A DNA stretch of 64,000 bases from Rickettsiales bacterium. GTDB lineage: Bacteria; Pseudomonadota; Alphaproteobacteria; Rs-D84. Both the position numbers and the translations under genes were made by a program. Below, in pieces: positions 1,799 to 64,000 of this stretch; the first letter of the stretch is position 1, and the number at the start of each line of letters is the position of its first letter. Location of the stretch: NCBI GenBank assembly GCA_031266915.1, contig JAISAB010000001.1:37994-101993 (forward strand). Direction: 5' to 3'. Under the pieces are notes generated by a model that was given only the letters and a program-made list of their open reading frames with translations, did not search any database and was not told the origin of the DNA.

Positions 1799-4588
1799 AT
1801 GAGCGACAATAAACTTTCCCCCGTCATGCAGCAGTATGTTGATATGAAAGCCGAAAATCCGGATGCTTTGTTATTGTTTCGCCTGGGCGATTTTTACGAG
1901 GTTTTTTTCGAAGACGCCAAAACCGTCAGCGCGGCCATCGGAATTGTCCTGACACACCGCGGCGTCGACGCGAACGGCGACGATATTCCCATGTGCGGAA
2001 TTCCCTGGCATGCGGCGGACAACTATTTCGGCCGGCTGGTTCGTGACGGGTACAAGGTCGCGCTGGTCGAACAGATGGAGACACCCGCCCAGGCCAAGGC
2101 CGCCGGACGAAAATTTGTCACCCGCCAGGTCGTGCGCGTCCTGACGCCGGGCACGCTGACGGACGAGAATCTGCTGACGCCGAAGAATTCGAATTTTCTG
2201 GTCGCGGTCGCTCCCAGGAACAAGGAACAGGAACAAGGAACAGGGGTATTGTCACCCGTTCCTTGTTCCTTTTCCTCGTTCCTGATAGCCGGTTGCGATA
2301 TTTCGACCGGCGAATTCTTTATCGGCGAATCGGCGGCCATACTGGATGATTTGGTCCGCGTCAATCCGGCCGAAATTATTTATCCTGAAACAGACGCGGA
2401 AAACCCAGAAATCATGCGTCTGCGCGACACATTCAAAACGACGCCCGTTTATGAAAAGCTGTACAATCGCGCTGACATCGATCAAATAGTATTTAAGATA
2501 TTCGGACAGAACTTCGCCTCTTCGCGGCAGGTGGAAGAGCGCAGAGTGCAGAGCGCAGTTGAAAAATCGCAGGGCGATTTTTCATCGAATCACGAATCAC
2601 GAGTTACGAGTCACGCCGCCGCCGGTTTGTGTGGCAGCGCGACCTGCAATGGGGCGGTGGCGCTGCTGGCCGGGTATCTGTTCAATACCCAGCGCGACGC
2701 CAATATCGCGTTCCGCGCGCCGTACGCTTTCAAGGCCGGAACGCAATTGCTGGTTGACAGCGCGACTTGGAAAAGCTTGGAAATCGACAGCCCAATCAAC
2801 GACGGCGGAACATGTCTGGTCGACATTCTAGACAAGACCAAAACCGCTGCCGGGGCGCGGCGCCTGCGTTCATATCTGCGCGCGCTGTCGGGCGACATCG
2901 GCGAAATCCGCCGACGCCAGGAACACATCGGCCATCTGATTCTGAACCGCGACGTCATGGGCGGGCTGGAACGGATTCTATCCCGCGTGCCCGACGTCGG
3001 CCGCAGTCTGGCGCGATTGCTGTCGGGACGCGGCGCGCCGCGTGACCTGCGCGTGGCGGCCGATTTTATGGTCATGCTTGGCGATGCAAAATCCATGGGC
3101 GCCCGCTTGGATTCAGATTTGGCGGCCAAGTTCGCAAACATCGACACGCATGACGCGCTGGCGGGTGAATTGAAATTTGCGCTGAACGACGAACTGCCGA
3201 CTTTTTTCCGCGACGGCGGAATCATCCGCGCCGGATTCGACCCGTCGCTGGACAATATGAAAGAACTGGCGAACGGCGCCAAGGAAACAATCGCCGGCCT
3301 GCAGGCTCAGTACGCTGCTGCGACCGGTGTGGGCGCGCTGCGGATAAAATACAACAACATACTCGGGTATTTTATCGAGGTCCCCAGCCCCCGCGCCGAC
3401 GCGCTGATGAATCCTGAAAACGGATTTATTCATCGCCAGACAATGGCCGGCAACATGCGCTTTACCACGCCGCGTTTAATCGATTTGGACAATGATGTCC
3501 GCAGCGCCGCCGAAAAAGCCGGGGCAATCGAATCTGAAATCATTGCGAATCTGATTGAAAAAATCCGGGCGGCGGCCGACGATTTGCTGAACACGGCGGA
3601 ATTAATCGCGGACGCAGACGTGTGGCGCGCGCTGGCCGATGTGGCCGACGAATATTCATGGGTGCGCCCCGCCGTGACCGAATCCCGAGCGTTCGACGTG
3701 CGCGGCGGCCGCCATCCGGTTATCGAGGCCGTTCTGCGTTCCCGCGGCGACGCGTTCGTTAAAAACGACTGCGTCCTGGACGGGCGGCAAATCGCGCTGT
3801 TGACCGGTCCGAACATGGCCGGAAAATCCACCTATCTGCGCCAGAACGCGCTGATTGTCGTGCTGGCGCATCTGGGCGCGTTCGTGCCGGCAGAACGCGC
3901 CACAATCGGCGTCTGCGATCAGCTGTTCAGCCGCGTCGGCGCCAGCGACAACCTGGCCGCGGGCCAGTCAACGTTTATGGTCGAGATGACGGAAACGGCG
4001 AATATTCTGAACCGCGCGACGCGCCAGTCCTTTATCATTTTCGATGAAATCGGCCGCGGAACCGCGACATACGACGGCATGGCGATTGCCCAGGCCGTAC
4101 TGGAATTTTTGGATGACGTCAAACCGCGCACCTTGTTCGCGACACATTATCATGAACTGACCGCGCTGGTACCATCGTCAGAGTTCAAAGTTCAAGGTTC
4201 AAAGTTCAAATATTCCGGTGATGAACCCGGGATCACGATTTCGCAAGACGGTTCGGCTTGCGCCCATCTGAACTCTGTTAACTGTCTGACCATAGAAATT
4301 CGCGAGCATAACGGCGAGATTGTCTTTATGCATAAAATAATTCCCGGCGTGGCCAGCCGCTCCTATGGAATACACGTTGCAAAAATGGCCGGCATACCAA
4401 TATCGGTGATAAATCGCGCCGAAGACGTCCTGAACGCGCTAGAAACCCGGACCGACGCGCCTGCGCGAAAAACGCCGCCTGCGGTCAAAAAGGTCGAAGA
4501 TGTCGACATGATTGTCGACGAGCCGGGCGTAAAACCGCAAAAAGTCGCGGCGCCTGCAAACAAAACACAGCTTTCCCTGTTTGGATAA
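1799..4588 (+). CDS. mutS: DNA mismatch repair protein MutS (carries three in-frame repeat insertions)
   Basis: 929 aa; MQQYxxxK...LFRLGDFYE N-terminus, Walker A GPNMAGKST, TFMVEMTETA; insertions at 2213-2283, 2521-2615, 4181-4210. Confidence 0.9.
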   Translation: MSDNKLSPVMQQYVDMKAENPDALLLFRLGDFYEVFFEDAKTVSAAIGIVLTHRGVDANGDDIPMCGIPWHAADNYFGRLVRDGYKVALVEQMETPAQAKAAGRKFVTRQVVRVLTPGTLTDENLLTPKNSNFLVAVAPRNKEQEQGTGVLSPVPCSFSSFLIAGCDISTGEFFIGESAAILDDLVRVNPAEIIYPETDAENPEIMRLRDTFKTTPVYEKLYNRADIDQIVFKIFGQNFASSRQVEERRVQSAVEKSQGDFSSNHESRVTSHAAAGLCGSATCNGAVALLAGYLFNTQRDANIAFRAPYAFKAGTQLLVDSATWKSLEIDSPINDGGTCLVDILDKTKTAAGARRLRSYLRALSGDIGEIRRRQEHIGHLILNRDVMGGLERILSRVPDVGRSLARLLSGRGAPRDLRVAADFMVMLGDAKSMGARLDSDLAAKFANIDTHDALAGELKFALNDELPTFFRDGGIIRAGFDPSLDNMKELANGAKETIAGLQAQYAAATGVGALRIKYNNILGYFIEVPSPRADALMNPENGFIHRQTMAGNMRFTTPRLIDLDNDVRSAAEKAGAIESEIIANLIEKIRAAADDLLNTAELIADADVWRALADVADEYSWVRPAVTESRAFDVRGGRHPVIEAVLRSRGDAFVKNDCVLDGRQIALLTGPNMAGKSTYLRQNALIVVLAHLGAFVPAERATIGVCDQLFSRVGASDNLAAGQSTFMVEMTETANILNRATRQSFIIFDEIGRGTATYDGMAIAQAVLEFLDDVKPRTLFATHYHELTALVPSSEFKVQGSKFKYSGDEPGITISQDGSACAHLNSVNCLTIEIREHNGEIVFMHKIIPGVASRSYGIHVAKMAGIPISVINRAEDVLNALETRTDAPARKTPPAVKKVEDVDMIVDEPGVKPQKVAAPANKTQLSLFG

Positions 4589-4610: not shown

Positions 4611-5600
4611 ATGAACGGATGGATAATCTTGGACAAGCCGTCAGGCATGACCAGCCGCGCCGCGGGCGGGCGCGTCATGCGTATGTTTGGCGCCGAAACG
4701 TTCGGCCATATCGGAACCTTGGACCCGATGGCGTCGGGATTGCTGCCGATTGCGCTGGGCAATGCCACCAAGATGATTCCTTTTTTCGAGAGCGAAGAGC
4801 GTAGAGCGCAGAGCGAAGGTTCCGCCGCTTCGCGGCAGAGCGCAGGTCGCAAGTCGCAGGTAGAAGATGTTGATAATAACGAACCATCTACGCTCTGCGC
4901 TCTTCGCTCTTCGACCTCTAAAGAATATCTATTCAGCGTTCAGTTCGGATTCGAAACTGATACGCTGGATATTACCGGAACGGTTGTCAAGGAAACCAAT
5001 GTTGTCCCATTGCCGGCTCAGGTTATGGCAGCGTGCGCCGCACTGACCGGAACGATTTATCAAACGCCGCCGGCCTATTCCGCGGTGCATGTCGGCGGGC
5101 GGCGCGGCTATGAACTGGCGCGCGCGGGCAAAGAATTCGAAATTCCGCCACGCCCGGTTACCATCGACGCGCTGGAATTGCTGGACGCGGGCAGAAAATC
5201 CTGGCAATTCCGCGTGGTGTGCGCGCCCGGAACATACGTTCGCGCCATTGCCCGCGACATCGCCGCGATGTGCGATACGGTCGCAACCGTGGACATGATA
5301 CGGCGCCTGCGTACCAGCGGCCTGGATATAAAAGATGCGGTCGGGCTTGATTTTTTAGAAAATCTGTTTCATAATGGCGGGAACTTCGAAGATTATTTGA
5401 AGCCTGTGGATTTCGGACTGGGGGACATTCCGGTTCTGAATCTGAACGACGCGGACGCCGGTTTATATAAACAGGGCGGCTTTGTCGAAATTGCGGCGGC
5501 GGGCGAACCGGGATTGGTTCGGGTCTTTTCAAACGGGCGGTTCATCGGAATCGGAACGTTTGACGGCAACCTGTTGAAGCCGAAACGAACACTTAACTAA
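4611..5600 (+). CDS. truB: tRNA pseudouridine(55) synthase TruB with an in-frame 127-bp palindromic insertion
   Basis: [13 protein letters not shown] and [18 protein letters not shown] motifs; start moved to Met11 (4611) to avoid overlap with mutS. Confidence 0.85.
4789..4915. repeat. Family D palindromic element (gagcgaagagcgtagagcgcagagcg ... cgctctgcgctcttcgctcttcgac) inside truB
   Basis: Arms are reverse complements; copies at 27350-27485 (in queH) and 30911-30995 (fabG-mnmG spacer); fragments at 2521-2560 and 35581-35618. Confidence 0.75.
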
Positions 5601-13993: not shown

Positions 13994-14000
13994 AACACTA

Positions 14001-14102
14001 GCGGATAGTCAATAGTCATTGGTCTATAGTCAATAGTTAATAAAGCCGTCGGCTTCGCCGACACATTCACTACCAACTAACGACTATAGACTACTGACTA
14101 TG
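14001..14102. repeat. Family A element with central terminator-like hairpin (gccgtcggcttcgccgac)
   Basis: atagtcaatagtcattggtctatagtcaatagtt ... aactaacgactatagactactgactat. Confidence 0.6.
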
Positions 14103-14353
14103 TAAATAACCTCTGGATTTATCTGGCAATTGCGGTATAATGTTCGTCGACAGGCGCGTTGCCTGTTATGGAATTAACAATCCATCACCAAAAGGGTCTT
14201 GAACAGACCATAAACCTTCACCCAAAAGGGGTGGAGGGCGGCGTTATAAGGCTTGCCGAAGGCGTTGCACTATACTTTTGGATAGTTTGTTAATCTCCAT
14301 CCCACCTTGATTTTTAAAGGTGGTTTTCTTTTTGAAAAAAAAAGGGGGATTCG

Positions 14354-15238: not shown

Positions 15239-15460
15239 ATGGGGAAAATTTTGCTGCTTTTGATAATCGCCGCTTTCGCGTCCATTGGCTCGTCGCCATC
15301 GCATGCGGTACAATCATACCAAAGTATAGCGGCATGCACCAATGCGGGCGGGGTGGTTTATGACGGCTGCATGTGCAAGGTCGCAAAAACCACCACGAAC
15401 TACGGCGTCATAACCACCAGCACGGAATGCGGTACCATAGCCGGTCTGGCCTGCATCTAA
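15239..15460 (+). CDS. Small cysteine-rich secreted protein
   Basis: Signal peptide MGKILLLLIIAAFASIGSSPSHA; six Cys in 50 residues; RBS AGGAGG. Confidence 0.4.
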   Translation: MGKILLLLIIAAFASIGSSPSHAVQSYQSIAACTNAGGVVYDGCMCKVAKTTTNYGVITTSTECGTIAGLACI

Positions 15461-15473
15461 AAAAGGATTAAAA

Positions 15474-15857
15474 ATGTCTAGATTTGTCTCTGTTTTTTCC
15501 GGGCTGTCGTTGCTGTCTGGGGCGGCGGCCAGCGCGCCGCCGCCGACTTCGCTTGGCGACGAATGCGACACGAAATCATATACCTGCGCGAACGGATATT
15601 ACGGCACGCCGACCGATAGTTCTACCGGATGTACGCTATGCCCCGAGCACGCTACATGCGCCGGCACGGGCAACACAACATTCATATGTATTTCAGGATA
15701 TTATAAAATTGGCGCCACGTGTGCGCCCTGCCCCGATGGCGGCACATCAATTGCGGGCGCGCGGGCGATAACCGATTGTTATCTGCCCACTGGAACATCA
15801 TTTGAAGATGCGTACGGAACTTTTGAATTGACCGACAAGTGTTATTATAGCAATTAA
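15474..15857 (+). CDS. Cysteine-rich secreted protein (eukaryote-like CxxCP / GYY repeats)
   Basis: Signal peptide; CTLCPEHATCAGTGNTTFICISGYYKIGATCAPCPDGG; followed by a terminator. Confidence 0.5.
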   Translation: MSRFVSVFSGLSLLSGAAASAPPPTSLGDECDTKSYTCANGYYGTPTDSSTGCTLCPEHATCAGTGNTTFICISGYYKIGATCAPCPDGGTSIAGARAITDCYLPTGTSFEDAYGTFELTDKCYYSN

Positions 15858-15884
15858 AAAACCGGCAAAAAAGCCGGTTTTTTA
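15858..15884 (+). terminator. Rho-independent terminator
   Basis: accggcaaaaaagccggt hairpin followed by tttttt. Confidence 0.6.
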
Positions 15885-15887
15885 ATA

Positions 15888-15982
15888 AATAGTCGTTAGT
15901 CTATAGTCATTAGTGAATAGTGCTTAGTTTATAGTGCATAGTTAATAGTTCACTAATCACTATGCACTATTCACTAGTGATT
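15888..15982. repeat. Family A element
   Basis: atagtcgttagtctatagtcattagtgaatagtgcttagtttatagtgcatag...cactattcactagtgat. Confidence 0.55.
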
Positions 15983-16029: not shown

Positions 16030-16330
16030 AACTTTCCCCCTTTATCAAGGGGGACAAGTGCTAAACCAAGGGGTAAAAGAGCTGAGCCAAATGGGATAAG
16101 TGCCAAACCGAGGGGGGAAAAGAGCTGAACAAATTGGATAAGAGCCGAATCAAGGAAGACAAGTGCCAAGTTTTGTGCCAGTGCGCTGTTCTGGGCTGTT
16201 GCCCCTTTCATTTCACGCTTGTTCCCAGCAACCTGGCGCCAGCCACTCTTGTTTCATACTTGTTCCTAGAACTTGGCGCTGGCCCCTCTTGTTAAAGAGG
16301 GGTGAAAATCTTGGCAACTTGTTGCCATAG
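16030..16330. repeat. Degenerate ~38-nt tandem units (acaagtgctaaaccaagggg...) followed by an inverted counterpart
   Basis: Three tandem units around 16045-16170, then cttgttcc...cttggcgctggcccctcttgtt on the other arm; non-coding. Confidence 0.4.
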
Positions 16331-16344
16331 ATTTTCGGGGAGAT

Positions 16345-16470
16345 TAATAGTTAGTCAACAGTCATTGGTCTATAGTCAGTAGTGTATAGCAAATAGCACA
16401 TACAATTAGGTGGTTATTTCAGATTTATGATTTAAGATATAAGATTTAGGCGACATTAAATCTTAAATTT
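16345..16470. repeat. Family A unit followed by family I gatttatgatttaagat repeats
   Basis: tagtcaacagtcattggtctatagtcagtagtg; agatttatgatttaagatataagatttag...taaatcttaaattt. Confidence 0.5.
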
Positions 16471-16537: not shown

Positions 16538-17413
16538 TTATTTTATCAGTTTGTCCACCAGTTCCTGCATCTGGGTGCGGGTGTCGAATTTCAAGACGAT
16601 TTCCCCTGCTCCGCCGCGCTTTTCGCGCAATTTCGCCGATACCCCCAGCGTCTTTTTGATACTGGATTCGATTTCCTTGACGGTGTCCGCGGCAATCGAT
16701 TTTGACGAAAAAGACCGGCTTTTTGATGATCGAACCGAATCTTTGACCTTTTTTTCCGTGTCCGACACGGACAGTTTTTTCTCGATGATTTCGCGCGCCA
16801 GCCCCTCGGCGTTTTCGGCTACGGCAATTGTGCGGGCATGGGACGCGCTGATTTCGCCCCGCTGGACCATTATTTTGACGGATTTAGGCAAGACATCCAG
16901 GCGCATGATGTTCCGAATATAGCTTTCCGATTTTCCAATCAAACGGGAAACATCGGCCAATTCATAGCCGCACTTTTCCATCAGGTTTTTATAAGCCGAC
17001 GCTTCTTCTATCGGGTTCAGGTTTTCGCGCTGGACGTTTTCAATCAATGCGATTTCCATCGCGTTTTCATCCGTAATGGTCTTGACCAAGGCCGGGATTT
17101 CAGCCAGTCCGGCCAGTTTGCTGGCGCGGAATCGGCGCTCGCCGGCGACGATTTCATACTGATGCGCCCTGCCCTTGACCGCGCGCAGCAAAATCGGCTG
17201 CAGAACGCCTTTTTCCCTGATTGACGCCGCCAGGTCCGCCAATTCGCTTTCCGTAAAAGTCTTGCGCGGCTGGTCCGGATTCGCGCCGATTTGAATCAGC
17301 GGAACCTGGCGGACGGCGACGCGCTCGCCGCCGGTCAGAACGGAAATATCCGGCATATTGCCCATTTCCGCCTTTAAATCCGCCAATCCTTTGCCTAGTC
17401 CGAATTTTGACAT
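16538..17413 (-). CDS. parB: Chromosome partitioning protein ParB
   Basis: IQIGANPDQPRKTFTESELADLAASIREKGVLQPILLR and HTH region typical of ParB. Confidence 0.9.
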   Translation of the reverse strand: MSKFGLGKGLADLKAEMGNMPDISVLTGGERVAVRQVPLIQIGANPDQPRKTFTESELADLAASIREKGVLQPILLRAVKGRAHQYEIVAGERRFRASKLAGLAEIPALVKTITDENAMEIALIENVQRENLNPIEEASAYKNLMEKCGYELADVSRLIGKSESYIRNIMRLDVLPKSVKIMVQRGEISASHARTIAVAENAEGLAREIIEKKLSVSDTEKKVKDSVRSSKSRSFSSKSIAADTVKEIESSIKKTLGVSAKLREKRGGAGEIVLKFDTRTQMQELVDKLIK

Positions 17414-17456: not shown

Positions 17457-17828
17457 CTATTTTGTTATACTTTTCAATAATCCCGTCAGCATTTGATTTA
17501 TTCTTTCTATATCGCTTGTCAGTGTTTCAAACATGTTTTTATTTATAAAATTCAAATCCGACGCCAGCATAATCTGGCATTTTAATTCTGCGGCTGAACC
17601 TCTTGCAATACCAATAAACTGCTTTAACTCTCCGGTTGTAATCCTCGCGCCGCCCTCTGATAAATTAGAACAAACTGAAACCGCCGCACGGCGCATCTGA
17701 CTTGTTAATCCGAATTTTTCATCCTGCGGGAATTCTTTTGTAATTTCATAAATAACCTTTACAAAATTCCTAGATATTTTAAACACATCAAGTTCTTCTA
17801 TCGATTTCATTTTAGCCCCACGTATCAC
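17457..17828 (-). CDS. Four-helix-bundle protein (23S rRNA IVS protein family), second copy, between parA and parB
   Basis: LDVFKISRNFVKVIYEITKEFPQDEKFGLTSQMRRAAVSVCSNLSEGGAR...FIGIARGSAAELKCQIMLA closely matches the family consensus; AT-rich; start may be Met 17810. Confidence 0.65.
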   Translation of the reverse strand: MIRGAKMKSIEELDVFKISRNFVKVIYEITKEFPQDEKFGLTSQMRRAAVSVCSNLSEGGARITTGELKQFIGIARGSAAELKCQIMLASDLNFINKNMFETLTSDIERINQMLTGLLKSITK

Positions 17829-18586
17829 GCTTTCTCAACTATCTCCGTCGCGACGCGCAGGTACGCCTGGGCGCCGGCGGAGCCGAAATCATAGAATAAC
17901 GCCGGCTTGCCGTGGCTGGGGGCCTCGGAAACGCGGACGTTGCGCGGCACGACCGTTTTAAAGACCTTGTCGCCAAAGGTGTTGCGAACGTCTTCCTCGA
18001 CCGCCTTGGTCAATCCATAGCGTCGATCATACATCGTCAGCAAAACGCCCAGGATTTCCAAATTCGGATTCCAATTTTTGCGGATTTCCGAAATCGTATT
18101 GACCAGATGCTGGACGCCTTCCAGCGCAAAGAACTCGCATTGCAGCGGCACGACAATCGAATCGGCCGTCGTCAGCGCGTTCAGCGTCAGATAGCCCAGC
18201 GCCGGCGGACAGTCCAACAATATGTAATCGTAATGGCCGCGCACCGGTTCCAACGCGTCGCGTAGACGGTATTCGCGGTTGTCCATATCCAGCAGCTCGG
18301 CCTCGGCACCCGACAAGGCCGGACTGGCCGGCAGGATGTGCATGCCCGGAACGGCGGTGGACAGAATATTGTCGGCCGCGCTGGCGGTTCCCATGATAAC
18401 GCCGTACACGCTTTGACGATGGGCGGCGCGGACAAACCCCAGACCTGTTCCGGCGTTGCCCTGCGGGTCCAGGTCTATCAGCAGGACGCGCTTTTTGATG
18501 GCGGCCAGGGACGCCCCGATATTGATGGCCGTCGTAGTCTTGCCGACGCCGCCCTTTTGGTTGGCAAACGCGATAATCTTTGTCAT
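17825..18586 (-). CDS. parA: Chromosome partitioning ATPase ParA
   Basis: KIIAFANQKGGVGKTTTAINIGASLA deviant Walker A; 253 aa. Confidence 0.9.
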   Translation of the reverse strand: MTKIIAFANQKGGVGKTTTAINIGASLAAIKKRVLLIDLDPQGNAGTGLGFVRAAHRQSVYGVIMGTASAADNILSTAVPGMHILPASPALSGAEAELLDMDNREYRLRDALEPVRGHYDYILLDCPPALGYLTLNALTTADSIVVPLQCEFFALEGVQHLVNTISEIRKNWNPNLEILGVLLTMYDRRYGLTKAVEEDVRNTFGDKVFKTVVPRNVRVSEAPSHGKPALFYDFGSAGAQAYLRVATEIVEKA

Positions 18587-18649
18587 TTAATATTCCTGGG
18601 TGCTTTACGGGCATAGAATAGAAAATCAGACCGATTCGGTCAAGCAGAT

Positions 18650-18750
18650 TAGTCAATAGTGGATAGCAAATAGCATATAGAAAATAACAAAATTCTAAAC
18701 AAAATACTACCGACTATAGACTACTGACTAATGACTAATGACTAATACTA
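18650..18750. repeat. Family A element
   Basis: tagtcaatagtggatagcaaatagcatatag...ctaccgactatagactactgactaatgactaatgactaat. Confidence 0.55.
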
Positions 18751-18857
18751 CCGTTTCCGGCTCACAAAAAACAAACATTTATTAATAAACTCTTAGCTAT
18801 TTCATACGAAATTATATTTAGACTTGACAAAAACACCATTCGTAGTACTTTGACCGC

Positions 18858-19784
18858 ATGACTTTTCGCAAATTATATTCTTTGGGAATTAAAATCGCTT
18901 TGGGGACGGGGCTTGTCCTGATTCCAGCATGGTTTGTGCGACCTTTGGACACACCGACAGTTTCGACCAACCATGTATTCAAGCCGGCCTATGACGATAT
19001 TGTGTTCAAAACTGATACAAATTACATCACAGATGAAATTTATAACGATTTGGCTGGCAAAATCCGAAATTATGTTGAAAAACCACGAACAAAACGAACA
19101 TTAGCTTGGGGCATTTCATATCCGTACGCGAACAAGATTGTCATCTATTACAATATAACTAACAGCAAATCCCCAGCGGTCCAGCGCTATGTCGACTATT
19201 CGAACAGCCAAATTCGCCTGACAAAACGCCACGAGTTGGAACACGCCAGAAAATCGGCCTTTGTTCACGGCGTAGAGAACAATTTGCCATTCATACGCGG
19301 AAAAATCGCCATGATGAACGAGGTGATGGCGCCTGCCGGCGAGATAATCGAAGCCTTGGATCATCACGCCGAAACAGGCGAAGTTTATCCGAACGCACCG
19401 AACCAGATAAAATCCGCAGACGCCGCAATCATGCGCATTCTGGGACAAGACAAATTAACTGGTCCCGTTGATTTCAACAACCAACAGATTGCGGACATCG
19501 TCATGGAACACGCGCTGGCGAAATTCTTATTCCATTACAACCACGGCATATACCACTGGACAATCAGCAACGCTAAAAAAACCTTTAAATTCAAAAGCCC
19601 GCCAAAAAATTCCGAATATATGAAATACAGCGGCTATTCCTTTTTTCCGTTATTTAACGACTGGCAGGCACTGTGGGTCTTCGAAACCAAACGCGGAATG
19701 GCCGATTTGTGGAAAAATGCGTCAGACGAACAGAAAAAACGTCTTATCGCCACCACAGATTCCATTGTTAAACTAACACGATAA
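18858..19784 (+). CDS. AT-rich hypothetical membrane-anchored protein with HExxH motif (putative Zn metallopeptidase/effector)
   Basis: 308 aa; N-terminal TM LGIKIALGTGLVLIPAWFV; TKRHELEHARK; ~40% GC versus ~60% in flanking genes. Confidence 0.5.
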   Translation: MTFRKLYSLGIKIALGTGLVLIPAWFVRPLDTPTVSTNHVFKPAYDDIVFKTDTNYITDEIYNDLAGKIRNYVEKPRTKRTLAWGISYPYANKIVIYYNITNSKSPAVQRYVDYSNSQIRLTKRHELEHARKSAFVHGVENNLPFIRGKIAMMNEVMAPAGEIIEALDHHAETGEVYPNAPNQIKSADAAIMRILGQDKLTGPVDFNNQQIADIVMEHALAKFLFHYNHGIYHWTISNAKKTFKFKSPPKNSEYMKYSGYSFFPLFNDWQALWVFETKRGMADLWKNASDEQKKRLIATTDSIVKLTR

Positions 19785-19817
19785 TTCAAACAAATAACTT
19801 CTATTTCATATGAAATA

Positions 19818-20435
19818 TCAAGTGTCGTGACGGCAAAGTGGCCGGACGTTTTCAACCTGGATAACAAAGCCGTCGCCTGTCTGGGATGGCGTCAGCACAT
19901 AGTCAAAATCATAGCGTGTTTTCGCGGCCGCAATTTCAGTCTCTATTTCCCGGCCTTTTAATAGAAAAAGCCGGCATTTTGTAATCGCAACGTAATCCAA
20001 AATTTTCAGCAGGGGTGCGAACGCTCTGGCGGTAAAAATCAATTCTTTACCGGCTTTTTCGACGGTTTTTATAAAATCCTCGACCCGGCCGTGATATATT
20101 GTCAAATTCGGCAAATCCAATTTTTCTTTCAACATTTTTAAAAAGTTCGCCTTTTTGCCGACTGATTCGATACAAACCACGTCCCAGCCGCATACGGCCA
20201 GCACAACACCCGGGAATCCCGCCCCGCTGCCTAAATCCGCAATTCGGACGTTTTCCGGCAAAATGCCGGCCAATTGCATAGAATCGGCGAAATGACGCGA
20301 CTGTATGTCGTTCAAGGTGCTTGGGGCGACCAAATTCATCCTTTGCGACCAATCGCGTAGCAGACGTTCGTATTCGATAAATTTTTCTGGCGTATCCATA
20401 GATATTATTGTAGCATACATAGCGCAGATAAGCAA
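19818..20435 (-). CDS. rsmG: 16S rRNA (guanine527-N7)-methyltransferase RsmG (GidB)
   Basis: IADLGSGAGFPGVVLAV SAM motif and RsmG-length product; start may be Met 20399. Confidence 0.85.
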   Translation of the reverse strand: MLICAMYATIISMDTPEKFIEYERLLRDWSQRMNLVAPSTLNDIQSRHFADSMQLAGILPENVRIADLGSGAGFPGVVLAVCGWDVVCIESVGKKANFLKMLKEKLDLPNLTIYHGRVEDFIKTVEKAGKELIFTARAFAPLLKILDYVAITKCRLFLLKGREIETEIAAAKTRYDFDYVLTPSQTGDGFVIQVENVRPLCRHDT

Positions 20436-22117: not shown

Positions 22118-22981
22118 ATGCAAATCGGTGTCCTGGGCGCGGGCGCGTGGGGAACAGCTTTATCAATCGTATCCGCCAGAAGCGGAAACGACGTGATTTT
22201 ATGGTCTTACGATGGGCAATACGCACGGTTTGATGGCCCGCGGATGCCGGAAAATATCACGATTACGAACGCTATGGCCGATTTGGCGTCGACCGACGCA
22301 TGGCTGGTGGTAACACCGGCGGCCTTTTTTCGTGAAACGCTGACGGCCGCAAGGCCAATTTACAAGGGCCAGCCCATTATAATCTGCACCAAGGGGATAG
22401 AGATATCCACGCACAAATTCATGTCCGAGATAATGGCCCACGAATTGCCGGAATGCGCGGATTGCGGCGTTTTGTCCGGCCCGCAGTTCGCGGCCGAGGT
22501 CGTGCGCGGCATCCCGACCGGCAGCACGCTGGCCGGCACGGCCGTGGCGATTGCCGCCGGAACGCAGGCGTTGGGGGACCTGCGCCTGGACGCGTCGGAC
22601 GACGTTATCGGCGCCGAGATATGCGGCGTCGGCAAAAATGCCGTGGCGCTGCTTGCCGGATTTTCCAGCGTCGAAATCCAGGGCGAAAACCAAAAGGCGC
22701 TGCTATTCACGCGGGCCTGGGGTGAAGTCGTAACATTCGGTCTGGCCCGCGGCGCGAAAATAGAGACATTTTTGGGACTGTGCGGCCTGGGCGATTTATA
22801 TCTGTCCGCAACCTCGGCGACCAGCCGAAATTATTCCGCGGGCGCCGCCATTGCGAAAGGCGAACCGGTCGTCGGAACGGTCGAGGGAATCGCCGCTTTG
22901 AACGGCTTGGTCCGCCGCGCGGCTGCGCAGAATATCGATTTGCCTATCCTGCGAGGCATGCGCGACAAGACAAATCTGTAA
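22118..22981 (+). CDS. gpsA: NAD(P)H-dependent glycerol-3-phosphate dehydrogenase
   Basis: MQIGVLGAGAWGTALSIVSARSGNDVILWSYD; GLCGLGDLYLSATSATSRNYSAG. Confidence 0.85.
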   Translation: MQIGVLGAGAWGTALSIVSARSGNDVILWSYDGQYARFDGPRMPENITITNAMADLASTDAWLVVTPAAFFRETLTAARPIYKGQPIIICTKGIEISTHKFMSEIMAHELPECADCGVLSGPQFAAEVVRGIPTGSTLAGTAVAIAAGTQALGDLRLDASDDVIGAEICGVGKNAVALLAGFSSVEIQGENQKALLFTRAWGEVVTFGLARGAKIETFLGLCGLGDLYLSATSATSRNYSAGAAIAKGEPVVGTVEGIAALNGLVRRAAAQNIDLPILRGMRDKTNL

Positions 22982-23004
22982 ATAAAATCAAACAAAAAAA
23001 CACC

Positions 23005-23031
23005 TATGCGCTGCCAGCGCATTTTTTTATC
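23005..23031 (+). terminator. Rho-independent terminator after gpsA
   Basis: atgcgctgccagcgcat hairpin followed by ttttttt. Confidence 0.55.
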
Positions 23032-24251
23032 ACAAAAAAAGTTGCAAAAAAGCCGGGAAGTTAAGCAGCAAAAATTTAACAAAAACAGTAAAATACCGGC
23101 CGTTTCGTATGAAATTGAATAAAAAACACATTGTTAAACATGCTTTTGGGCACATATCGTCGATATTTATGCAAAAAAGCCGGTAAAAACCGTTAAAATC
23201 ACCGGGAAAAGGCCGCAAACTCAGGCGGGCAGGGCGCAAACAATGGAAAAACATTATCCAAATAGGAAAAATACCGGCCTTTTTGATAGTTTTTTAAATT
23301 TCAAACGCCAAATTAAAATGCCGCGGGCCACACGGCGCACGGTGCAAAATGACGGTCAGCGTCGCTGGAAAAATGGAATTTTTGACATCAATGGGTCGCG
23401 TTTTGAAAAAAGCCCGTCCGATAGATTTATCCGGCGCAATTTTGACGAATCGATTTTTTACGTCGAATTATTTGTCGGATTTCACCTCGATTCCTTTTTC
23501 AGCCAATCGAATTCTTGAAAAACGAATCTATTTTCGGACATCCGCGGCATCGGATTTTGCAACTAAAAACGCCGAATTATTTTCATGGCCAAGACATATT
23601 TTTTACACAAAATGTCCGACGAAAATCAGGCATCCGCGACACCGAATTCGGCGAACAAAAAAGTCAAATTATTTTATGACCAAGGCACCGTTTTTCACGT
23701 TGAACATCATGTGCGAAATCGCCCCGATATTTTATATCGCCATGACGTCGAATCATGACGCGACGACGCGCCTTGACGCGGTCAAAACAGGCCATGCGGC
23801 AACCATAAAACCGCATGCCGCTTCGCACCTTGTTTTTCAAGGTCAAAAAATAGCGATTTTCAAACTGGACATGAATTCAAAAAAATGCTTTTTTGTCAAT
23901 TTTAAGCCTCAAACTGGTATTATCGGTTGCAAAAACAACCGGATTTTCGGTCTTGTCAGATTATATTCGTGAAAATACGCGTTTTTTATACAGGAACATA
24001 TTGCCGTATATTTTTGTCGTTTATTTTTAATAAAACCTATTGTTTTTCACATAAATCGATTCAAAAAACACGCCTGTTTATTCAACGCGTGCAACAGAAA
24101 AACACGTGGTCGAAACAGTCGGACCAGATTTGAAAAACCATATCGGAATTTTGACGTCGTATGAGTAAACCGGCGGCAAATTTCTTATCGATGATTTCGT
24201 GCGCCGCTTTGTCTTGTTTTAGAAAAATTTCTGAGGTAACATCATACCTGA

Positions 24252-24370
24252 TATAGTCTATAGTCAGTAGTCATTAGTGAATGTGTCGCGCAACCTGTCC
24301 ACCGAAGCCTTGGCGAAGGTGGAAGCGCGACGACTTTATTGACTATTGACTATATGATTATTGACTTTTC
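24252..24370. repeat. Family A element with central GC hairpin (gtgtcgcgcaacc...ccaccgaagccttggcgaaggtgg...gcgcgac)
   Basis: atagtctatagtcagtagtcattagtgaat ... attgactattgactatatgat. Confidence 0.6.
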
Positions 24371-24410
24371 ATTTGCAATTAAAATTCGGTTTGTTATAAT
24401 CCGCCGGTCC

Positions 24411-24487
24411 GGGTGTGTAGCTCAGTTGGCTAGAGCGTTACGTTGACATCGTAGAGGTCGTTGGTTCGAGCCCAATCACACCCACCA
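24411..24487 (+). tRNA. tRNA-Val (GAC)
   Basis: GGGTGTGTAGCTCAGTTGGCTAGAGCGTTACGTTGACATCGTAGAGGTCGTTGGTTCGAGCCCAATCACACCCACCA; anticodon loop TTGACAT. Confidence 0.8.
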
Positions 24488-24510
24488 ATTTGCAATCCGG
24501 CTTTGGCTTC

Positions 24511-24586
24511 GGATGGTTAGCTCAGCTGGTAGAGCACATCGTTCACATCGATGGGGTCGTTGGTTCGAGTCCAATACCATCCACCA
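24511..24586 (+). tRNA. tRNA-Val (CAC)
   Basis: GGATGGTTAGCTCAGCTGGTAGAGCACATCGTTCACATCGATGGGGTCGTTGGTTCGAGTCCAATACCATCCACCA; anticodon loop TTCACAT. Confidence 0.75.
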
Positions 24587-24894
24587 CCCTTCGCGTCTGC
24601 GACGCTTCGGGTGGCTGCGCTACGGGCGAGATTTAAGAATTTTGAGTACCACGACGTAGTCCGCCAAAGGCGCGACAAAGACGGGTTGATTCAAAATATG
24701 AGTGCCCGCCATATCCCGCAGGGCAAAGTGCGGCTGCTCGGGCGGGACAAAGACAGACGCGGAATATTAAATCATGACTTGTGATTATGGATTCTTTGCG
24801 GTTTTTATGATGCGCGCCGGCGCATAAGTTCTTCTATTTTTCCTTTACACTTTGATTTCTCCGTTTTAAACTCTTGAACATAAAGAGGCTTTTC

Positions 24895-26934
24895 ATGACC
24901 AAGAAAAAATACCTGATAACCAGCGCATTGCCCTATGTGAACAATATTCCGCATATCGGAAACTTTGTCGGCAGCGTTCTGCCGTCCGACGTGTACGCCA
25001 GATTCTGCCGCGCACGCTTTGGTTCGGAAAATGTTTTGTTTGTCTGTGGCGCGGACGCGCACGGCAGCCCGATTGTCATCCAGGCGAAGAAAGAGGGCGT
25101 CAGCCCCGCCGAACTGGTTGCGAAATACCACGCTTTGCACGCGAAAATTTTTCAGGATTTCGATATTTCCTTTGACGGCGGATACGGAACAACCCATACG
25201 GAACTGCAGGTAAATCTGGTTCACGATTTGTTCAGCGCTTTGGATAAAAACGGATTTATAGAGGAAAAGACGACAATCCAACCGTTTTCGGTCGACGACA
25301 ACATATTTTTGGCGGACAGGCAGATAGAGGGAACATGCCCGAAATGCGGTTACAACAAGGCGCGCGGCGACCAATGCGACAAGTGCGGCGAATTGCTGGA
25401 CCCGGCGGACCTGATAAACCCCTATGCTGCGGACAGCGGCAGCAGAAATATTGAAATGCGGGAAACAAAAAATCTTTTCTATCGCGCCGACAAGGTCAAG
25501 GATTCGGTTTCCGCCTGGGTTTTCAAGACCGCCGAGAAAAACAAGTGGTCGCGCTCGGCATTCGCGGCGACGAAAAAATATCTGTCCGAAGACGTTCCGA
25601 ATCCGTCGGTCTCGCGCGATTTGCCATGGGGCATTCCAGTAAACAAGCCGGGCTATGAAGACAAGGTTTTTTATGTCTGGTTCGACGCGCCGTGGGGCTA
25701 TGTTTCGATTTCCCAGGCGGCAAAACCCGGTCGCGCCGCAGCAAACGGCGAAGGCGGATGGGCCGATTGGTGGCACGGCGGCGAAAACTGCCACTATGCG
25801 CAATTCATGGGCAAGGATAACATAAAATTCCATTCGCTGTTCTTTCCGGGCCAGGAAATCGCCTGGGCGGACGGGAATTGGAAAAAGGTCGATTTGCTCA
25901 AAGGCATGAACTTTTTGAATTTCGAGGGCAATAAAATATCCAAAAGCATGGGGAACGGCATCGATTTGTCTCAGGCACTGACGGCTGCGCCGGCCGATTG
26001 CTGGCGCTATGCGCTGATTGCCAGCGCGCCGGAAACCGACGATACCGACTTTACCGTCCGCCGGTTCGCAGACATCGTGAACAAGGATTTGAACGGCATG
26101 CTGGGCAACTTCGTGTCTCGCGTGGCCAAGCTGACCGAAAAGAATTTCGGGCTGACAGTACCCACATTCCAAAAAGGATTCGAAACTCCAATTGAAACAA
26201 TGAACGCACATTTGGCCGATTTGAGCGCCGCGCTGGAGGCCTGCGAATTTCGAAAATCAATCGAGGCGCTGCGTTCCATGTGGGCTGTCGCGAACGAGTA
26301 TATGACATCAAAGGCGCCGTGGACGCTGGTTAAAAACGGCGAAATGATTGCAGCCGGCGCAGTCTTGAACGAATGCTTTCAGATGATAGATTTCTTCGCG
26401 CGCGTGTCCGCGCCGTTTATTCCGGGTGCCGCGGAAAAAATTCAGAATATTTTCCCCGCCAGACACGACCTTTCTTGGCCAACCGAATATGAATGGCGTA
26501 TTCAGGACGGTGAAGAATTTACTGTGCCGGAAAATCTGTTCGAGCGAATCGACGACGCGCGCGTGGCGCAGCTGACCGAAAAATATTCGTCCAAGCCGAC
26601 CGACGCGCTGAAAATCGTCATCGCCAAAATCCTGACCGCAACACCGCACCCGACGCGCGAAGGCCTGTCCGTACTTTCGGTTGACGCAGGCGATGCGGCG
26701 CCTTTGCAAATCGTATGCGGCGCGCCGAACGTCCGCGCCGGTTTTATCGGCGTTCTGGCGCACGTCGGCGCCACACTGCCGGGACAAAAGAAACCGCTGG
26801 CCAAGCGCGCGGTGGCCGGCGTCGAATCGCATGGCATGATGTGCAGCGCGGCGGAACTGGGCGTCGGCGCGGACGACGACAATATTTTGGAACTGGGCGC
26901 AGATTCCAAAATCGGCGAAGAATTCAAGAAATAA
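24895..26934 (+). CDS. metG: Methionyl-tRNA synthetase with C-terminal tRNA-binding (EMAP/Trbp111-like) domain
   Basis: Start Met 24895 (AAAGAGG RBS); LITSALPYVNNIPHIGN HIGH motif; KISKSMGN KMSKS motif; zinc knuckle CPKCG...CDKCG. Confidence 0.9.
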   Translation: MTKKKYLITSALPYVNNIPHIGNFVGSVLPSDVYARFCRARFGSENVLFVCGADAHGSPIVIQAKKEGVSPAELVAKYHALHAKIFQDFDISFDGGYGTTHTELQVNLVHDLFSALDKNGFIEEKTTIQPFSVDDNIFLADRQIEGTCPKCGYNKARGDQCDKCGELLDPADLINPYAADSGSRNIEMRETKNLFYRADKVKDSVSAWVFKTAEKNKWSRSAFAATKKYLSEDVPNPSVSRDLPWGIPVNKPGYEDKVFYVWFDAPWGYVSISQAAKPGRAAANGEGGWADWWHGGENCHYAQFMGKDNIKFHSLFFPGQEIAWADGNWKKVDLLKGMNFLNFEGNKISKSMGNGIDLSQALTAAPADCWRYALIASAPETDDTDFTVRRFADIVNKDLNGMLGNFVSRVAKLTEKNFGLTVPTFQKGFETPIETMNAHLADLSAALEACEFRKSIEALRSMWAVANEYMTSKAPWTLVKNGEMIAAGAVLNECFQMIDFFARVSAPFIPGAAEKIQNIFPARHDLSWPTEYEWRIQDGEEFTVPENLFERIDDARVAQLTEKYSSKPTDALKIVIAKILTATPHPTREGLSVLSVDAGDAAPLQIVCGAPNVRAGFIGVLAHVGATLPGQKKPLAKRAVAGVESHGMMCSAAELGVGADDDNILELGADSKIGEEFKK

Positions 26935-36941: not shown

Positions 36942-36974
36942 ATCGAATTACGAGTCACGAATTACGAATCTCGA
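36942..36974. repeat. Family C cgaattacgagtcacgaattacgaatc repeat
   Basis: Copies at 2586, 37604, 41862, 45208, 50491, 52951; usually next to terminator hairpins. Confidence 0.55.
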
Positions 36975-36975
36975 A

Positions 36976-37003
36976 AAAACCGGCCGCGGCCGGTTTTTTT
37001 TAC
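36976..37003. terminator. Bidirectional terminator (aaccggccgcggccggtt with flanking A/T runs)
   Basis: Serves nth on + and the small genes on -. Confidence 0.55.
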
Positions 37004-37633: not shown

Positions 37634-37662
37634 CGAAAAAAACCGCCGAACGGCGGTTTTTT
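37634..37662. terminator. Bidirectional terminator downstream of pheT
   Basis: aaaaaaaccgccgaacggcggttttttt. Confidence 0.6.
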
Positions 37663-37666
37663 TATT

Positions 37667-41861: not shown

Positions 41862-41935
41862 GTGATTCGTAATCGGTAATCGGTAATCCGAATTTTGCGG
41901 TCGGATTACGGATTACGGATTACCAGTCACGAAAT
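41862..41935. repeat. Family C long palindromic form (cgtgattcgtaatcggtaatcgg ... cggattacggattacggattac)
   Basis: Arms reverse-complementary around ttttgcggtc. Confidence 0.55.
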
Positions 41936-42077: not shown

Positions 42078-42905
42078 TTGGCGATGAACCAGAAAAAAAT
42101 ATCTTCCAAAGTGCTGTCTTATGCGAAATCGGCGCTGGCCGCGGCTGTTTTGCCGGTCTTTTTGATATATGTCATGATTGACAAGCCCGATTACAAGATT
42201 ATCGGCGCCATGTCGCACATTGTCCTGCCGGCGGCGAACTGGGTCGGCGATGTCGTGTCGTGGCCGATACGGGCCGTGGCCAGCGGCGTGGCGGGAATAC
42301 GCGAGCTGTCCAATCTGCGCGGCGAGAACGAAGAACTGCGCGCCAAATTGGACCAGGCCCTGCGCATGCGCAACGAATGCGGCGTGGCAATTTCGGAAAA
42401 CCAAAGGCTGGCCCGAGAGCTGGACATGGTCCGCGCGTCGCCGCAAAAGGCGGTCGCTGCGCTGGTTTCCTATAACAACGACGCGTTTCACCACAGCACG
42501 TTTTTCATAGACAAGGGCGCGCGCGCCGGCATCGAGCCCGGCATGGCCGTCGTTTCGTTTGACGGGCGGCTGGCGGGCATCGTCATCGACGCGGGGCCGA
42601 CCTTTGCCAAGGTCCGCAGCCTGACGGATTCGAAATCGAACATACCCGTCCGCGTCGCCGGGTCCGAGGTCTACGGTTTTCTGCAGGGCAGCGGTTCCGG
42701 CGACCCGACGATGGGATTTTTCAGCGACCCTGAATTCCAGCCAACCCGGGGCTTGAAACTGGTCACCAGCAACATCCGCGGCGTGCTGCCCGACGGAATA
42801 ATCGTGGGCGAGATGTCCAATTCGACGGACGCGTCCGTTCTGCGCCCGACGCGCATGTCCAGCGTTATGGTTCTGCAGTTCGACGGCAAGGACAAATACA
42901 AATAG
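42078..42905 (+). CDS. mreC: Rod shape-determining protein MreC
   Basis: N-terminal TM, coiled coil LRGENEELRAKLDQAL, beta-rich C-terminal domain; followed by mreD-mrdA-rodA. Confidence 0.8.
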   Translation: MAMNQKKISSKVLSYAKSALAAAVLPVFLIYVMIDKPDYKIIGAMSHIVLPAANWVGDVVSWPIRAVASGVAGIRELSNLRGENEELRAKLDQALRMRNECGVAISENQRLARELDMVRASPQKAVAALVSYNNDAFHHSTFFIDKGARAGIEPGMAVVSFDGRLAGIVIDAGPTFAKVRSLTDSKSNIPVRVAGSEVYGFLQGSGSGDPTMGFFSDPEFQPTRGLKLVTSNIRGVLPDGIIVGEMSNSTDASVLRPTRMSSVMVLQFDGKDKYK

Positions 42906-43005
42906 TGAATAGTGATTAGTGCATAGTTTATAGTGACTAGCGGGCTAGCTACAACACTGCAAACTAAACACTAAGCACTATAAACTAAACACTATAAACT
43001 AATGG
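42903..43005. repeat. Family A element
   Basis: atagtgaatagtgattagtgcatagtttatagtgactag...cactataaactaaacactataaactaatgg. Confidence 0.55.
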
Positions 43006-43442
43006 TTTACTTGAAACGCCTTTTTCCGTTCTTCGCTGTGCTGTTGCTGTGGCGGCTGTCGTTTCCGTTTTGGAATCCGGGCGGCATTCTGGCCCTGATT
43101 CCGATTTTTTATTATTCCTTTATCAAACCTGTCGACTGGTTTGTCCTTTTCGCGGCCGCCTTTTGTTTTCTGATTGACTACAAGTCCGACACGCTGCTGT
43201 TCTGGACGGCCGTCTATTGCTTTTTCTACTCCGTCAACGGCTTTCAGAACTTCGTCGATTTGACGCGGCAGAAAAACGATGGACTGCCGGTGTTTATGGC
43301 GTATTTCGGCGTCCCGGCGCTGATTCTGGCCGCCGTGGGATGGACCTGGGTCGGCTTTATCCGCGCCGCGTGGCTGCTGTGCTGGCTAAGCGTCCTATAC
43401 ATTCCTTTCGCGGCGCTGGCAAAAAGGGTGAACGATGATTGA
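43002..43442 (+). CDS. mreD: Rod shape-determining protein MreD (polytopic membrane protein)
   Basis: 146 aa, five hydrophobic segments; position between mreC and mrdA. Confidence 0.6.
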   Translation: MVYLKRLFPFFAVLLLWRLSFPFWNPGGILALIPIFYYSFIKPVDWFVLFAAAFCFLIDYKSDTLLFWTAVYCFFYSVNGFQNFVDLTRQKNDGLPVFMAYFGVPALILAAVGWTWVGFIRAAWLLCWLSVLYIPFAALAKRVNDD

Positions 43443-45210: not shown

Positions 45211-45285
45211 TTGGTAATTGGTAATCCGTAATCGGTAATTCGAACATTGCGGTCGGATTACCGATTACGAATCACGAGTCACGGC
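45208..45285. repeat. Family C long palindromic form
   Basis: gtgattggtaattggtaatccgtaatcggtaattcgaacattgcggtcggattaccgattacgaatcacgagtcacg. Confidence 0.55.
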
Positions 45286-46467: not shown

Positions 46468-46542
46468 CAATTAAGAATTAATAATTAAGAATTACATTTG
46501 CAAATTTAATTATTAATTCTTAACTCTTAATTCTTAATTAAA
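46468..46542. repeat. Family B aattaagaattaa palindromic element
   Basis: aattaagaattaataattaagaattacatttgcaaatttaattattaattcttaactcttaattcttaatt. Confidence 0.6.
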
Positions 46543-60061: not shown

Positions 60062-60848
60062 TCTTGCGTCCTATTTTATATTATTCCTAGTATAGCACTA
60101 ATAAATGGCATAAAACAAGTTTTTATAGGGTTTAAAGAATATCAGATTTTTCGCTTATCATCTTTTTTTGCGGAATTAAAGGCGTGTCAGACTATTGTTG
60201 CCGCGATATAATCCGGCGATGTAAACATTTCTAGATGCCATCTGGAACGAAAGTGCAAAAATGAGTTTTCCATAAAGCATAATTTTGAAGTGGATGCAGA
60301 GCCATCAATCAACGAACTAAACGAATCCAAAGGCCTTTTTAAAGCATTGGAAGATTATAAAATAAAAGTATCTAAAGATAACCCAGTTTTTTTAGTATCC
60401 TGCGCTTGAATTTGCAAAATTAAAAAACTCTCTATAATTACATAGAACTAAATTTGGTTGTTCGCAATAGACAAAGTTCTAACCAACCATGTGTACGAGT
60501 TGGTAGATTTTATAAACCAGTAAAATCCCTTTCGGGAACTGTTATCTATCGAGCACAATGAACTAATATCTATAGCCACCAGAAACCGTAATTAATAGCA
60601 ATAATCTACCTCAAACATCCAATTTTTACCCAAACCTTGATAATAACACCAATTTTCACTCCCAAGGCTTTCAGACCTTTTGTTTCGTTTATAACCTATT
60701 AATATTTCTTAGTAATCTTAAATAACAATTGATTTTATGCAGATTGTAGGATATTGTAAAATTAATAAAGCGCGGTGGCAAATAACCAAAATTGGTAGCA
60801 AAAAGCACCCGTGGTAGCAAATAGGTAGAAAAAAAATGAAAAGGTAAT

Positions 60849-61646: not shown

Positions 61647-61668
61647 AATCAACTTTACCGAACGTGTA

Positions 61669-62803: not shown

Positions 62804-63010
62804 CAATTATTAAGGCAGGCTATATTATGTATTAAATTACTCGAAGTAGTTGATATCTGATAAGAAGATGATAAACTTCATGCAAAAATGAAGGAATGGC
62901 AAATGGCAGTTCGTATTGATATAAATAATAACAGCGAGGCTTTGGACTATGATTTAAGGAAGTATTTTCAATCTGGTAAGCTCAACTTTCTAATTGGATA
63001 AGGCGCATCT

Positions 63011-63967: not shown

Positions 63968-64000
63968 TTTGGAAAAAATTGTTCAGCAAAACACAATCCT
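63960..64000 (+). CDS. Partial gene (MSNLEKIVQQNTI...) overlapping the SIR2 stop by 8 nt; truncated by the window edge
   Basis: ATG at 63960 in the +1 frame relative to the SIR2 stop; translational coupling implied. Confidence 0.3.
   Translation, partial: MSNLEKIVQQNTI

Follow-up and report, generated by a model that had tools for sequence, protein, structure and literature searches.

The window analysed here, 64,000 nucleotides of a Rickettsiales bacterium of GTDB order Rs-D84 (assembly GCA_031266915.1, contig JAISAB010000001.1, positions 37,994 to 101,993), carries between the chromosome segregation gene parA and rsmG an open reading frame (ORF), hereafter X. It is likely to be a functional gene of the chromosome, confined to a single lineage of uncultured gut Alphaproteobacteria, relatives of Candidatus Enterousia. 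Its product is probably an exported zinc peptidase belonging to an undescribed family, the gene itself being old and apparently restricted to that clade. The initial annotation had read the same gene as a candidate horizontally acquired, AT-rich metalloprotease or type IV secretion effector inserted into the rsmG-parA-parB cluster. The main result is a correction: what looked like a fresh foreign insert appears to be an old, vertically inherited, clade-specific gene. The 308-residue frame on the forward strand was confirmed as annotated, and the locus is laid out as follows.

18858-19784, + strand: X, 308 amino acids, supported by the ORF list, homologues, purifying selection and a structure model
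17825-18586, - strand: parA (Pfam AAA_31/CbiA/MipZ), 76-84% identical to relatives, upstream of X and divergent from it
19818-20435, - strand: rsmG/gidB (Pfam GidB), downstream of X and convergent with it
16538-17413, - strand: parB (Pfam)

Homologues of X were collected by a word-indexed search (seven proteins, 31-33% identity), a metagenome scan with the family profile (18 more loci), a second word-indexed search using the profile (12 proteins) and an exhaustive profile search of 1.84 billion representatives, which resulted in 63 clusters at 50% identity, nearly all of them full-length at ~300 residues. In 30 of the 30 contigs carrying a homologue (25-38% identity), it lies between parA and rsmG in the same orientation. 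The order at these loci is parB and parA pointing leftward, a site resembling parS (the ParB-binding site), X pointing rightward, a second such site, rsmG pointing leftward, and then a TPR gene and gpsA pointing rightward. This site is also occupied at both extremes of similarity, by P0071, the closest homologue (38%), and by P0060, the most divergent of the full-length members (25%). The GC content of the homologues follows that of the flanking genes (r 0.76, n=28), with a mean offset of -6 points compared with -8 points for rsmG, and the pairwise divergence of X is closely correlated with that of five flanking proteins (Pearson 0.95). No copies of X were found in plasmids and phages by tblastn or in IMG/VR viral contigs by a pattern scan, and the window ORF list contains no integrase, transposase or tRNA among the ORFs adjoining X. 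With the same site in relatives, host-tracking GC and no mobility genes, tRNA or mobile copies, X does not have the hallmarks of a recently acquired genomic island gene. The synteny comparison thus recovered homologues at the same position and with host GC in relatives, the outcome set beforehand as speaking against acquisition, and recent acquisition is not supported.

The initial annotation was right that the locus is normally uninterrupted. In 78 alphaproteobacterial species-representative loci with parA and rsmG and without X, the two genes are never more than 352 nt apart (median ~65), compared with 1130-1455 nt where X is present. X interrupts a cluster that is contiguous in most Alphaproteobacteria, and the interruption is old and common to a clade. 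The genomes of the five species whose ParA is most similar (77-84% identity), which are gut metagenome-assembled genomes, one of them named Candidatus Enterousia, lack X and carry gpsA-TPR-rsmG-parA-parB with nothing between parA and parB. Overall, members of the X family seem to occur only in uncultured gut Alphaproteobacteria that are relatives of Candidatus Enterousia. A functional link between X and its TPR neighbour was considered and dropped because the TPR gene is there whether or not X is.

The composition of X is less deviant than had been proposed. Instead of ~40% GC between neighbours of ~60%, X has 44.3% GC (51.5% at third codon positions, GC3) and rsmG 46.8% with the same GC3 of 51.5%; only parA, at 59.3%, approaches the value given for the neighbours. 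Among the 39 long ORFs of the window (mean 52.9%, standard deviation 6.9), X has the fifth-lowest GC, ~1.2 standard deviations under the mean. The public gene call (P0001, 300 residues) starts from a TTG at 18882, eight codons later than the ATG at 18858; the latter is favoured by the conservation of F3, K5 and L9 in homologues and by the promoter layout described below.

To reconstruct the history of the gene, two neighbour-joining trees were built, one midpoint-rooted from five flanking proteins and one outgroup-rooted from ParB, ParA and RsmG. The X-less lineages L005 and L004 are basal in both trees (bootstrap 71-86%), and the X-less lineages L001 and L002/L003 are nested among X-bearing ones; L091, the sister of L001, has X. 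The X-bearers alone were monophyletic in none of 200 bootstraps. Since two X-less relatives branch first, the simplest history would be one gain after the basal split followed by at least two losses, although this scenario is tentative given the simplicity of the trees. X would thus have entered the rsmG-parA spacer, between two parS sites, once, in the ancestor of the clade, and would have been inherited vertically since then, with loss in a few lineages. Deletion of X through recombination between the two parS sites was rejected because both sites persist in the X-less relatives.

The window protein has no match in Pfam, NCBIfam, PADLOC or PHROGs, and no consistent Pfam match was found across 51 members of the family. 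Across the 51-sequence alignment, whose mean column identity is 31%, invariance is limited to six residues, namely H125, E126, H129, E155, E162 and Y232, and these cluster in the motifs RHExEHARK and MNEIMAPAxEIIEA, apart from the tyrosine. The HELEH motif reported initially was confirmed, and the downstream glutamates E155 and E162 lie 26 and 33 residues past H129.

19230-19244, + strand: HELEH (residues 125-129; H125, E126, H129), proposed zinc-binding and catalytic motif, invariant in 51 homologues, on helix 119-131
19314-19355, + strand: MNEVMAPAGEIIEA motif (residues 153-166), proposed to supply the third zinc ligand, with invariant E155 and E162 on helix 144-173
19551-19553, + strand: Y232, invariant tyrosine, candidate transition-state stabiliser by inferred role

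An AlphaFold2 model of X from the 51-sequence alignment reached a mean predicted local distance difference test score (pLDDT) of 88.9 and a predicted template modelling score (pTM) of 0.83, superseding a first prediction from 8 sequences (pLDDT 53.6). The model comprises, in order, a three-stranded sheet, helix 106-117, the HExxH helix 119-131, the long helix 144-173 and a helical C-terminal half. A sequence search of the PDB with the X protein returned nothing, the family profile yielded only a chance zinc-finger match (E 0.54), and Foldseek gave no significant match for the model in the PDB or BFVD. Weak structural matches are limited to ~100 residues of the core, the best being CapP, ArdC and PprI/IrrE. 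In the model, the signature and the order of elements fit a gluzincin, the rest of the fold having no solved relative. The enzyme class proposed initially, a metalloprotease, is hence plausible, with HExxH and the downstream Glu invariant in 51 sequences and a zincin-like order of elements. The globular core would be zincin-like, consisting of the three-stranded sheet, a backing helix, the HExxH helix and the Glu-bearing helix; H125, H129 and E155 (or E162) would bind zinc, E126 would activate water and Y232 may help to stabilise the transition state. The enzyme would presumably cleave peptides or proteins outside the cytoplasm.

The hydrophobic N-terminus, annotated initially as a transmembrane segment, was also recovered.

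18858-18938, + strand: N-terminal signal peptide or membrane anchor, MTFRKLYSLGIKIALGTGLVLIPAWFV (residues 1-27), basic and then hydrophobic

The best 15-residue Kyte-Doolittle mean is 2.08, and the model places a helix at residues 4-19, followed by a low-confidence linker. A basic-hydrophobic N-terminus of the signal-peptide type is present in 47 of the 51 family members and a lipobox-like Cys in 14 of the 51; the window protein has no lipobox. Judged by sequence, the N-termini of the family point towards export by Sec and away from type IV translocation out of the cytoplasm. The predicted domain plan would accordingly begin with a Sec signal peptide or anchor at the N-terminus (in some members a lipoprotein signal), continue through a short disordered linker and end in the globular domain. 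These features do not bear out the proposed type IV effector, and the lone type IV component in the ORFs scanned, a VirB4/TrbE/CagE-like ATPase at 53846-56254 (+ strand), lies 34 kb from X.

X is under purifying selection, as indicated by the ratio of nonsynonymous to synonymous substitution rates (dN/dS 0.07-0.27), while its nonsynonymous divergence (dN) exceeds that of the flanking genes 2- to 20-fold. It evolves several times faster than its neighbours, in the manner of surface and secreted proteins of host-associated bacteria, in which fast evolution is frequent. In the close pairs L083/L085 and L085/L090, the dS of the X homologues is 0.19-0.45 versus 0.02-0.32 for adjacent genes, which hints at local allele exchange or weaker codon constraint.

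Several groups of characterised zinc peptidases share features with X. As in the gluzincins (MEROPS clan MA(E): thermolysin M4, M1, M2, M3, M13 and M32), a modelled helix of X bears the HExxH, and the long helix after it bears an invariant Glu, preceded by 'NE' as in M1 and M4, with an invariant Tyr and an upstream sheet with a backing helix. The 26-residue His-Glu spacing of X we take to equal that of M32 and to be close to those of M2 and M3. Unlike these families, X gives no sequence match to them, has a much smaller domain of ~260 residues and a C-terminal half with no solved counterpart. Proteins of the ImmA/IrrE (M78) type, such as CapP of CBASS, PprI/IrrE and the metalloprotease domain of ArdC, have a compact zincin core, of the sort predicted for X, in which HExxH is followed by a Glu presumably at a similar spacing, but they are proteins of the cytoplasm, many of them fused or linked to partners in DNA binding or defence, whereas X carries a predicted export signal, lacks such partners and matches neither PADLOC nor Pfam M78. 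The secreted or effector zincins of pathogens (anthrax lethal factor, M34; the type III effectors NleC, M85, and NleD, M91) are likewise HExxH enzymes that act outside the bacterial cytoplasm in host-associated bacteria, and lethal factor recurs among the non-significant Foldseek matches of X (E 2.5 or worse, TM score 0.15-0.17). Unlike them, X shows no link to a secretion system and is chromosomal, syntenic and clade-wide rather than island-borne.

Two palindromes flank X, and both match the core of TGTTNCACGTGAAACA, which we take to be the consensus of the ParB-binding parS site; a candidate promoter lies between the first palindrome and the start codon.

18799-18812: parS-like palindrome 1 (ATTTCATACGAAAT), 46 nt upstream of the ATG, with an equivalent site in homologue loci
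19803-19816: parS-like palindrome 2 (ATTTCATATGAAAT), 19 nt past the stop codon, in the 33-nt spacer between X and rsmG
18824-18851, + strand: predicted X promoter, -35 box TTGACA (18824-18829), 16-nt spacer, -10 box TACTTT (18846-18851), with the ATG 6 nt on

Matches of this kind occur five times in the window, counted by strand, compared with 0.68 expected, and none of 100 shuffled sequences reached five. A third site, with one mismatch, lies in an AT-rich stretch just downstream of gpsA (23102-23115). The same parS core was found near rsmG and parA in 77 of 90 loci, and two cores bracket X in nearly all homologue loci. By their match to the consensus and their clustering near parAB, the palindromes flanking X qualify as putative ParB sites. 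The X-less relatives keep both sites, 60-210 bp apart in the rsmG-parA spacer, so that X sits exactly between two neighbouring centromere sites. The region resembles the parS/ParB region near oriC (gidB-parA-parB) of Caulobacter and Bacillus, with TTTCAYRTGAAA-core palindromes by rsmG and parA in most of 80 alphaproteobacterial loci, but differs in that an opposite-strand coding gene is fitted between two adjacent parS sites that are otherwise 60-210 bp apart.

The promoter layout is shared as well. The loci examined have the first parS site, 10-25 nt, TTGACA, a spacer of 16-18 nt and a TAnnnT box, and in the window and most lineages the ATG follows the -10 box by 6-7 nt, with no Shine-Dalgarno sequence. 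This arrangement suggests that the X messenger RNA is leaderless, which would explain the lack of a ribosome-binding site. One subclade of X has instead a leader with GGAGG.

Several points weigh against this overall interpretation of X as an old, exported zinc peptidase gene. The gain-then-loss history rests on neighbour-joining trees of three to five proteins with moderate support; the zinc ligands were assigned from the alignment and from their positions on helices, not from distances in the model; and the case for export comes from plain hydrophobicity and a match to a lipobox pattern, not from a dedicated predictor. In addition, the -10 box of X in the window is weaker than in most homologues, and the window protein has neither of two frequently conserved Cys residues; these were considered as a possible disulfide pair, and both are present in 29 of the 51 sequences, only one in 21 and neither in 1. 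Given the missing Cys residues and the weaker box, the activity or expression of X in the window may differ from that of its homologues.

Among the alternatives, we considered whether X has a zincin-like scaffold and yet is no general secreted protease, being instead a processing or regulatory enzyme held in the membrane and directed at a single envelope substrate, or a hydrolase that depends on a metal and cleaves bonds other than peptide bonds. The weak structural matches, limited to ~100 residues of the core, would accommodate this, as would the nature of the best ones (CapP, ArdC and PprI/IrrE are specific regulatory, not digestive, proteases), while the window protein, having no lipobox, could remain anchored in the inner membrane. 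Retention of X in a lineage whose genomes are reported to be reduced (PMC12306168) also suggests a housekeeping role, whereas the loss of X in at least three lineages (L001, L002/L003) speaks against an essential one. A dN 2-20 times that of the neighbours would moreover be unusual for an enzyme with one conserved endogenous substrate, and overall we find this alternative unlikely, if the most credible of those weighed. Clearly less probable is that the position of X is functional, that is, that X is controlled by ParB at the flanking parS sites or aids the centromere, its expression being coupled to segregation. The bracketing by two cores in nearly all loci, the 10-25 nt between the first site and the -35 box in every locus examined, and retention of the site down to 25% protein identity are what such a role would produce, but simple vertical inheritance in a compact genome gives the same conserved site. 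The X-less relatives keep both parS sites, which thus do not need X, and an exported protein has no obvious role at a centromere. Moreover, it is common for genes to lie between parS sites on chromosomes, and the influence of chromosomal ParB on transcription nearby is usually mild. In its boldest form, to which we likewise give little credence, X would be a structurally new branch of the zincins found only at the centromere of one reduced-genome order of gut Alphaproteobacteria; as its leaderless messenger RNA would begin at a promoter abutting the first parS site, the loading and spreading of ParB would gate the output of this exported, fast-evolving protease and so tie chromosome segregation or the cell cycle to interaction with a host or partner cell.

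Two further explanations involve mobility, and both are very improbable. Recent acquisition of an AT-rich foreign metalloprotease or type IV effector gene, dropped into rsmG-parA-parB, draws on a GC content 15 points under that of parA and 12.7 under the mean of the four flanking genes, on the absence of X from the five genomes with the most similar ParA, on the dispersed repeat upstream of the gene and, for an effector, on the VirB4-like gene at 53846-56254. It is contradicted by the common site in all 30 homologue loci, by the identical GC3 of X and rsmG, by a GC content that tracks the host in all lineages, by divergence that parallels that of the flanks, by borders devoid of integrase, tRNA or transposase, and by the lack of matches in plasmids, phages and IMG/VR; a signal-peptide-like N-terminus, moreover, is unexpected in a type IV substrate. 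Alternatively, the space between the parS sites could be an insertion hot spot into which X was inserted several times independently. Such repeated insertion might underlie the patchy distribution, for instance between L001 without X and its sister L091 with it, and X dS above flank dS in close pairs hints at local exchange, but all loci share one orientation, promoter layout and parS bracketing, X distances follow flank distances and no mobile-element copies were found. A single old gain of an exported zinc peptidase gene, followed by vertical inheritance and occasional loss, remains the likely interpretation. Being old and vertically inherited, X does not count as evidence for recent gene transfer, nor for an effector of a secretion system.

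The remaining features of the rsmG-parB interval include the repeat that had been noted before X, a predicted promoter of parA and a small additional gene.

18615-18643, - strand: predicted parA promoter, TTGACC, 17 nt, TATTCT; the TTGACYGAATCG box is kept in relatives
18649-18750: arrays of a 7-nt unit (ATAGTNN, then complementary ACTAWNG), the 'family A repeat' of the initial annotation, a dispersed intergenic element
17457-17811, - strand: four-helix-bundle gene (23S rRNA IVS protein/Avd-like; Pfam PF05635, 9e-36), 117 amino acids, 36% GC

The repeat does precede X, as stated initially, but it is a dispersed element and marks no insert boundary. Arrays of the same family as the copy at 18649-18750 occur at 1063, 13998, 15875, 16344, 24253 and 42888, and the heptad arrays are missing from the same spacer in relatives; therefore they mark intergenic DNA of the host and not the edge of an insert. 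A hairpin reading was rejected for the copy at 18649-18750, which folds no better than shuffled sequence (z -1.5). Tandem 7-nt arrays are present in many intergenic regions of the window, with a heptad sequence that varies by site, and often have, a few tens of nt off, a partner array built from the complementary heptad. Examples are found at 1063-1151, 1694-1782, 2215-2283, 4789-4913, 13998-14110, 15875-15976, 16344-16400, 18649-18750, 41862-41931, 42888-43018, 45200-45283 and 46469-46539. Some arrays adjoin classic terminators composed of a GC hairpin and a T-run (36973-37002, 37636-37665).

The four-helix-bundle gene sits between the parA stop codon and the parB ribosome-binding site and is absent from all 110 loci compared, every related locus included. 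Its closest homologue (76%) adjoins tolB in another genome (L111), and the PF05635 family has a scattered distribution across many phyla. It is this gene, rather than X, that represents the window-specific, recent insertion in the cluster. Elsewhere in the window, an AT-rich block (57062-64000, 33-41% GC) encodes a 999-residue Type ISP restriction-modification enzyme (57062-60061, - strand) and a SIR2-like protein (63011-63967, + strand); the block resembles a defence island, and the case for its horizontal acquisition is far stronger than that for X.

Gene order beyond gpsA (window intervals 22981-24874 and 1799-4588) also departs from that of relatives, in which gpsA is followed by xseB-mutS-truB-rpsO-metG. 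In the window, ~1.9 kb of AT-rich sequence with apparent tRNA 3' halves (24431-24586, repeat family D14) separates gpsA from metG (24874-26934), and mutS is found at 1799-4588. On the other side, beyond parB, lie two small Cys-rich predicted secreted proteins (73 and 127 residues; 15239-15857, + strand, and 16046-16293) with a weak match to Giardia VSP, and then tandem repeats of 21-, 40- and 42-nt period; in one relative, L087, this neighbourhood includes a Cys-rich gene of the Ephrin_rec_like type. A 595-residue ORF with 60% GC (43357-45144, - strand) has no Pfam match at E 1e-5 or better.

Candidatus Enterousia belongs to the order Rs-D84, in which related genomes are reported to have shrunk to around 1 Mb (PMC12306168). 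The retention of X in such genomes suggests a useful function, yet three lineages have lost the gene. Once the appearance of a recent insert is set aside, what is left is a small unannotated family of ~63 clusters with a complete zinc-peptidase signature, a predicted export signal and a confident model with no close solved relatives; X would be a cheap target for biochemical characterisation. The fixed site between two parS sites, together with the likely leaderless messenger RNA, may be of use for studies of centromere-proximal gene expression. For the biology of these gene-poor organisms, a retained, fast-evolving exported protease would be a reasonable candidate for a role in nutrient acquisition or in interaction with a host or partner.
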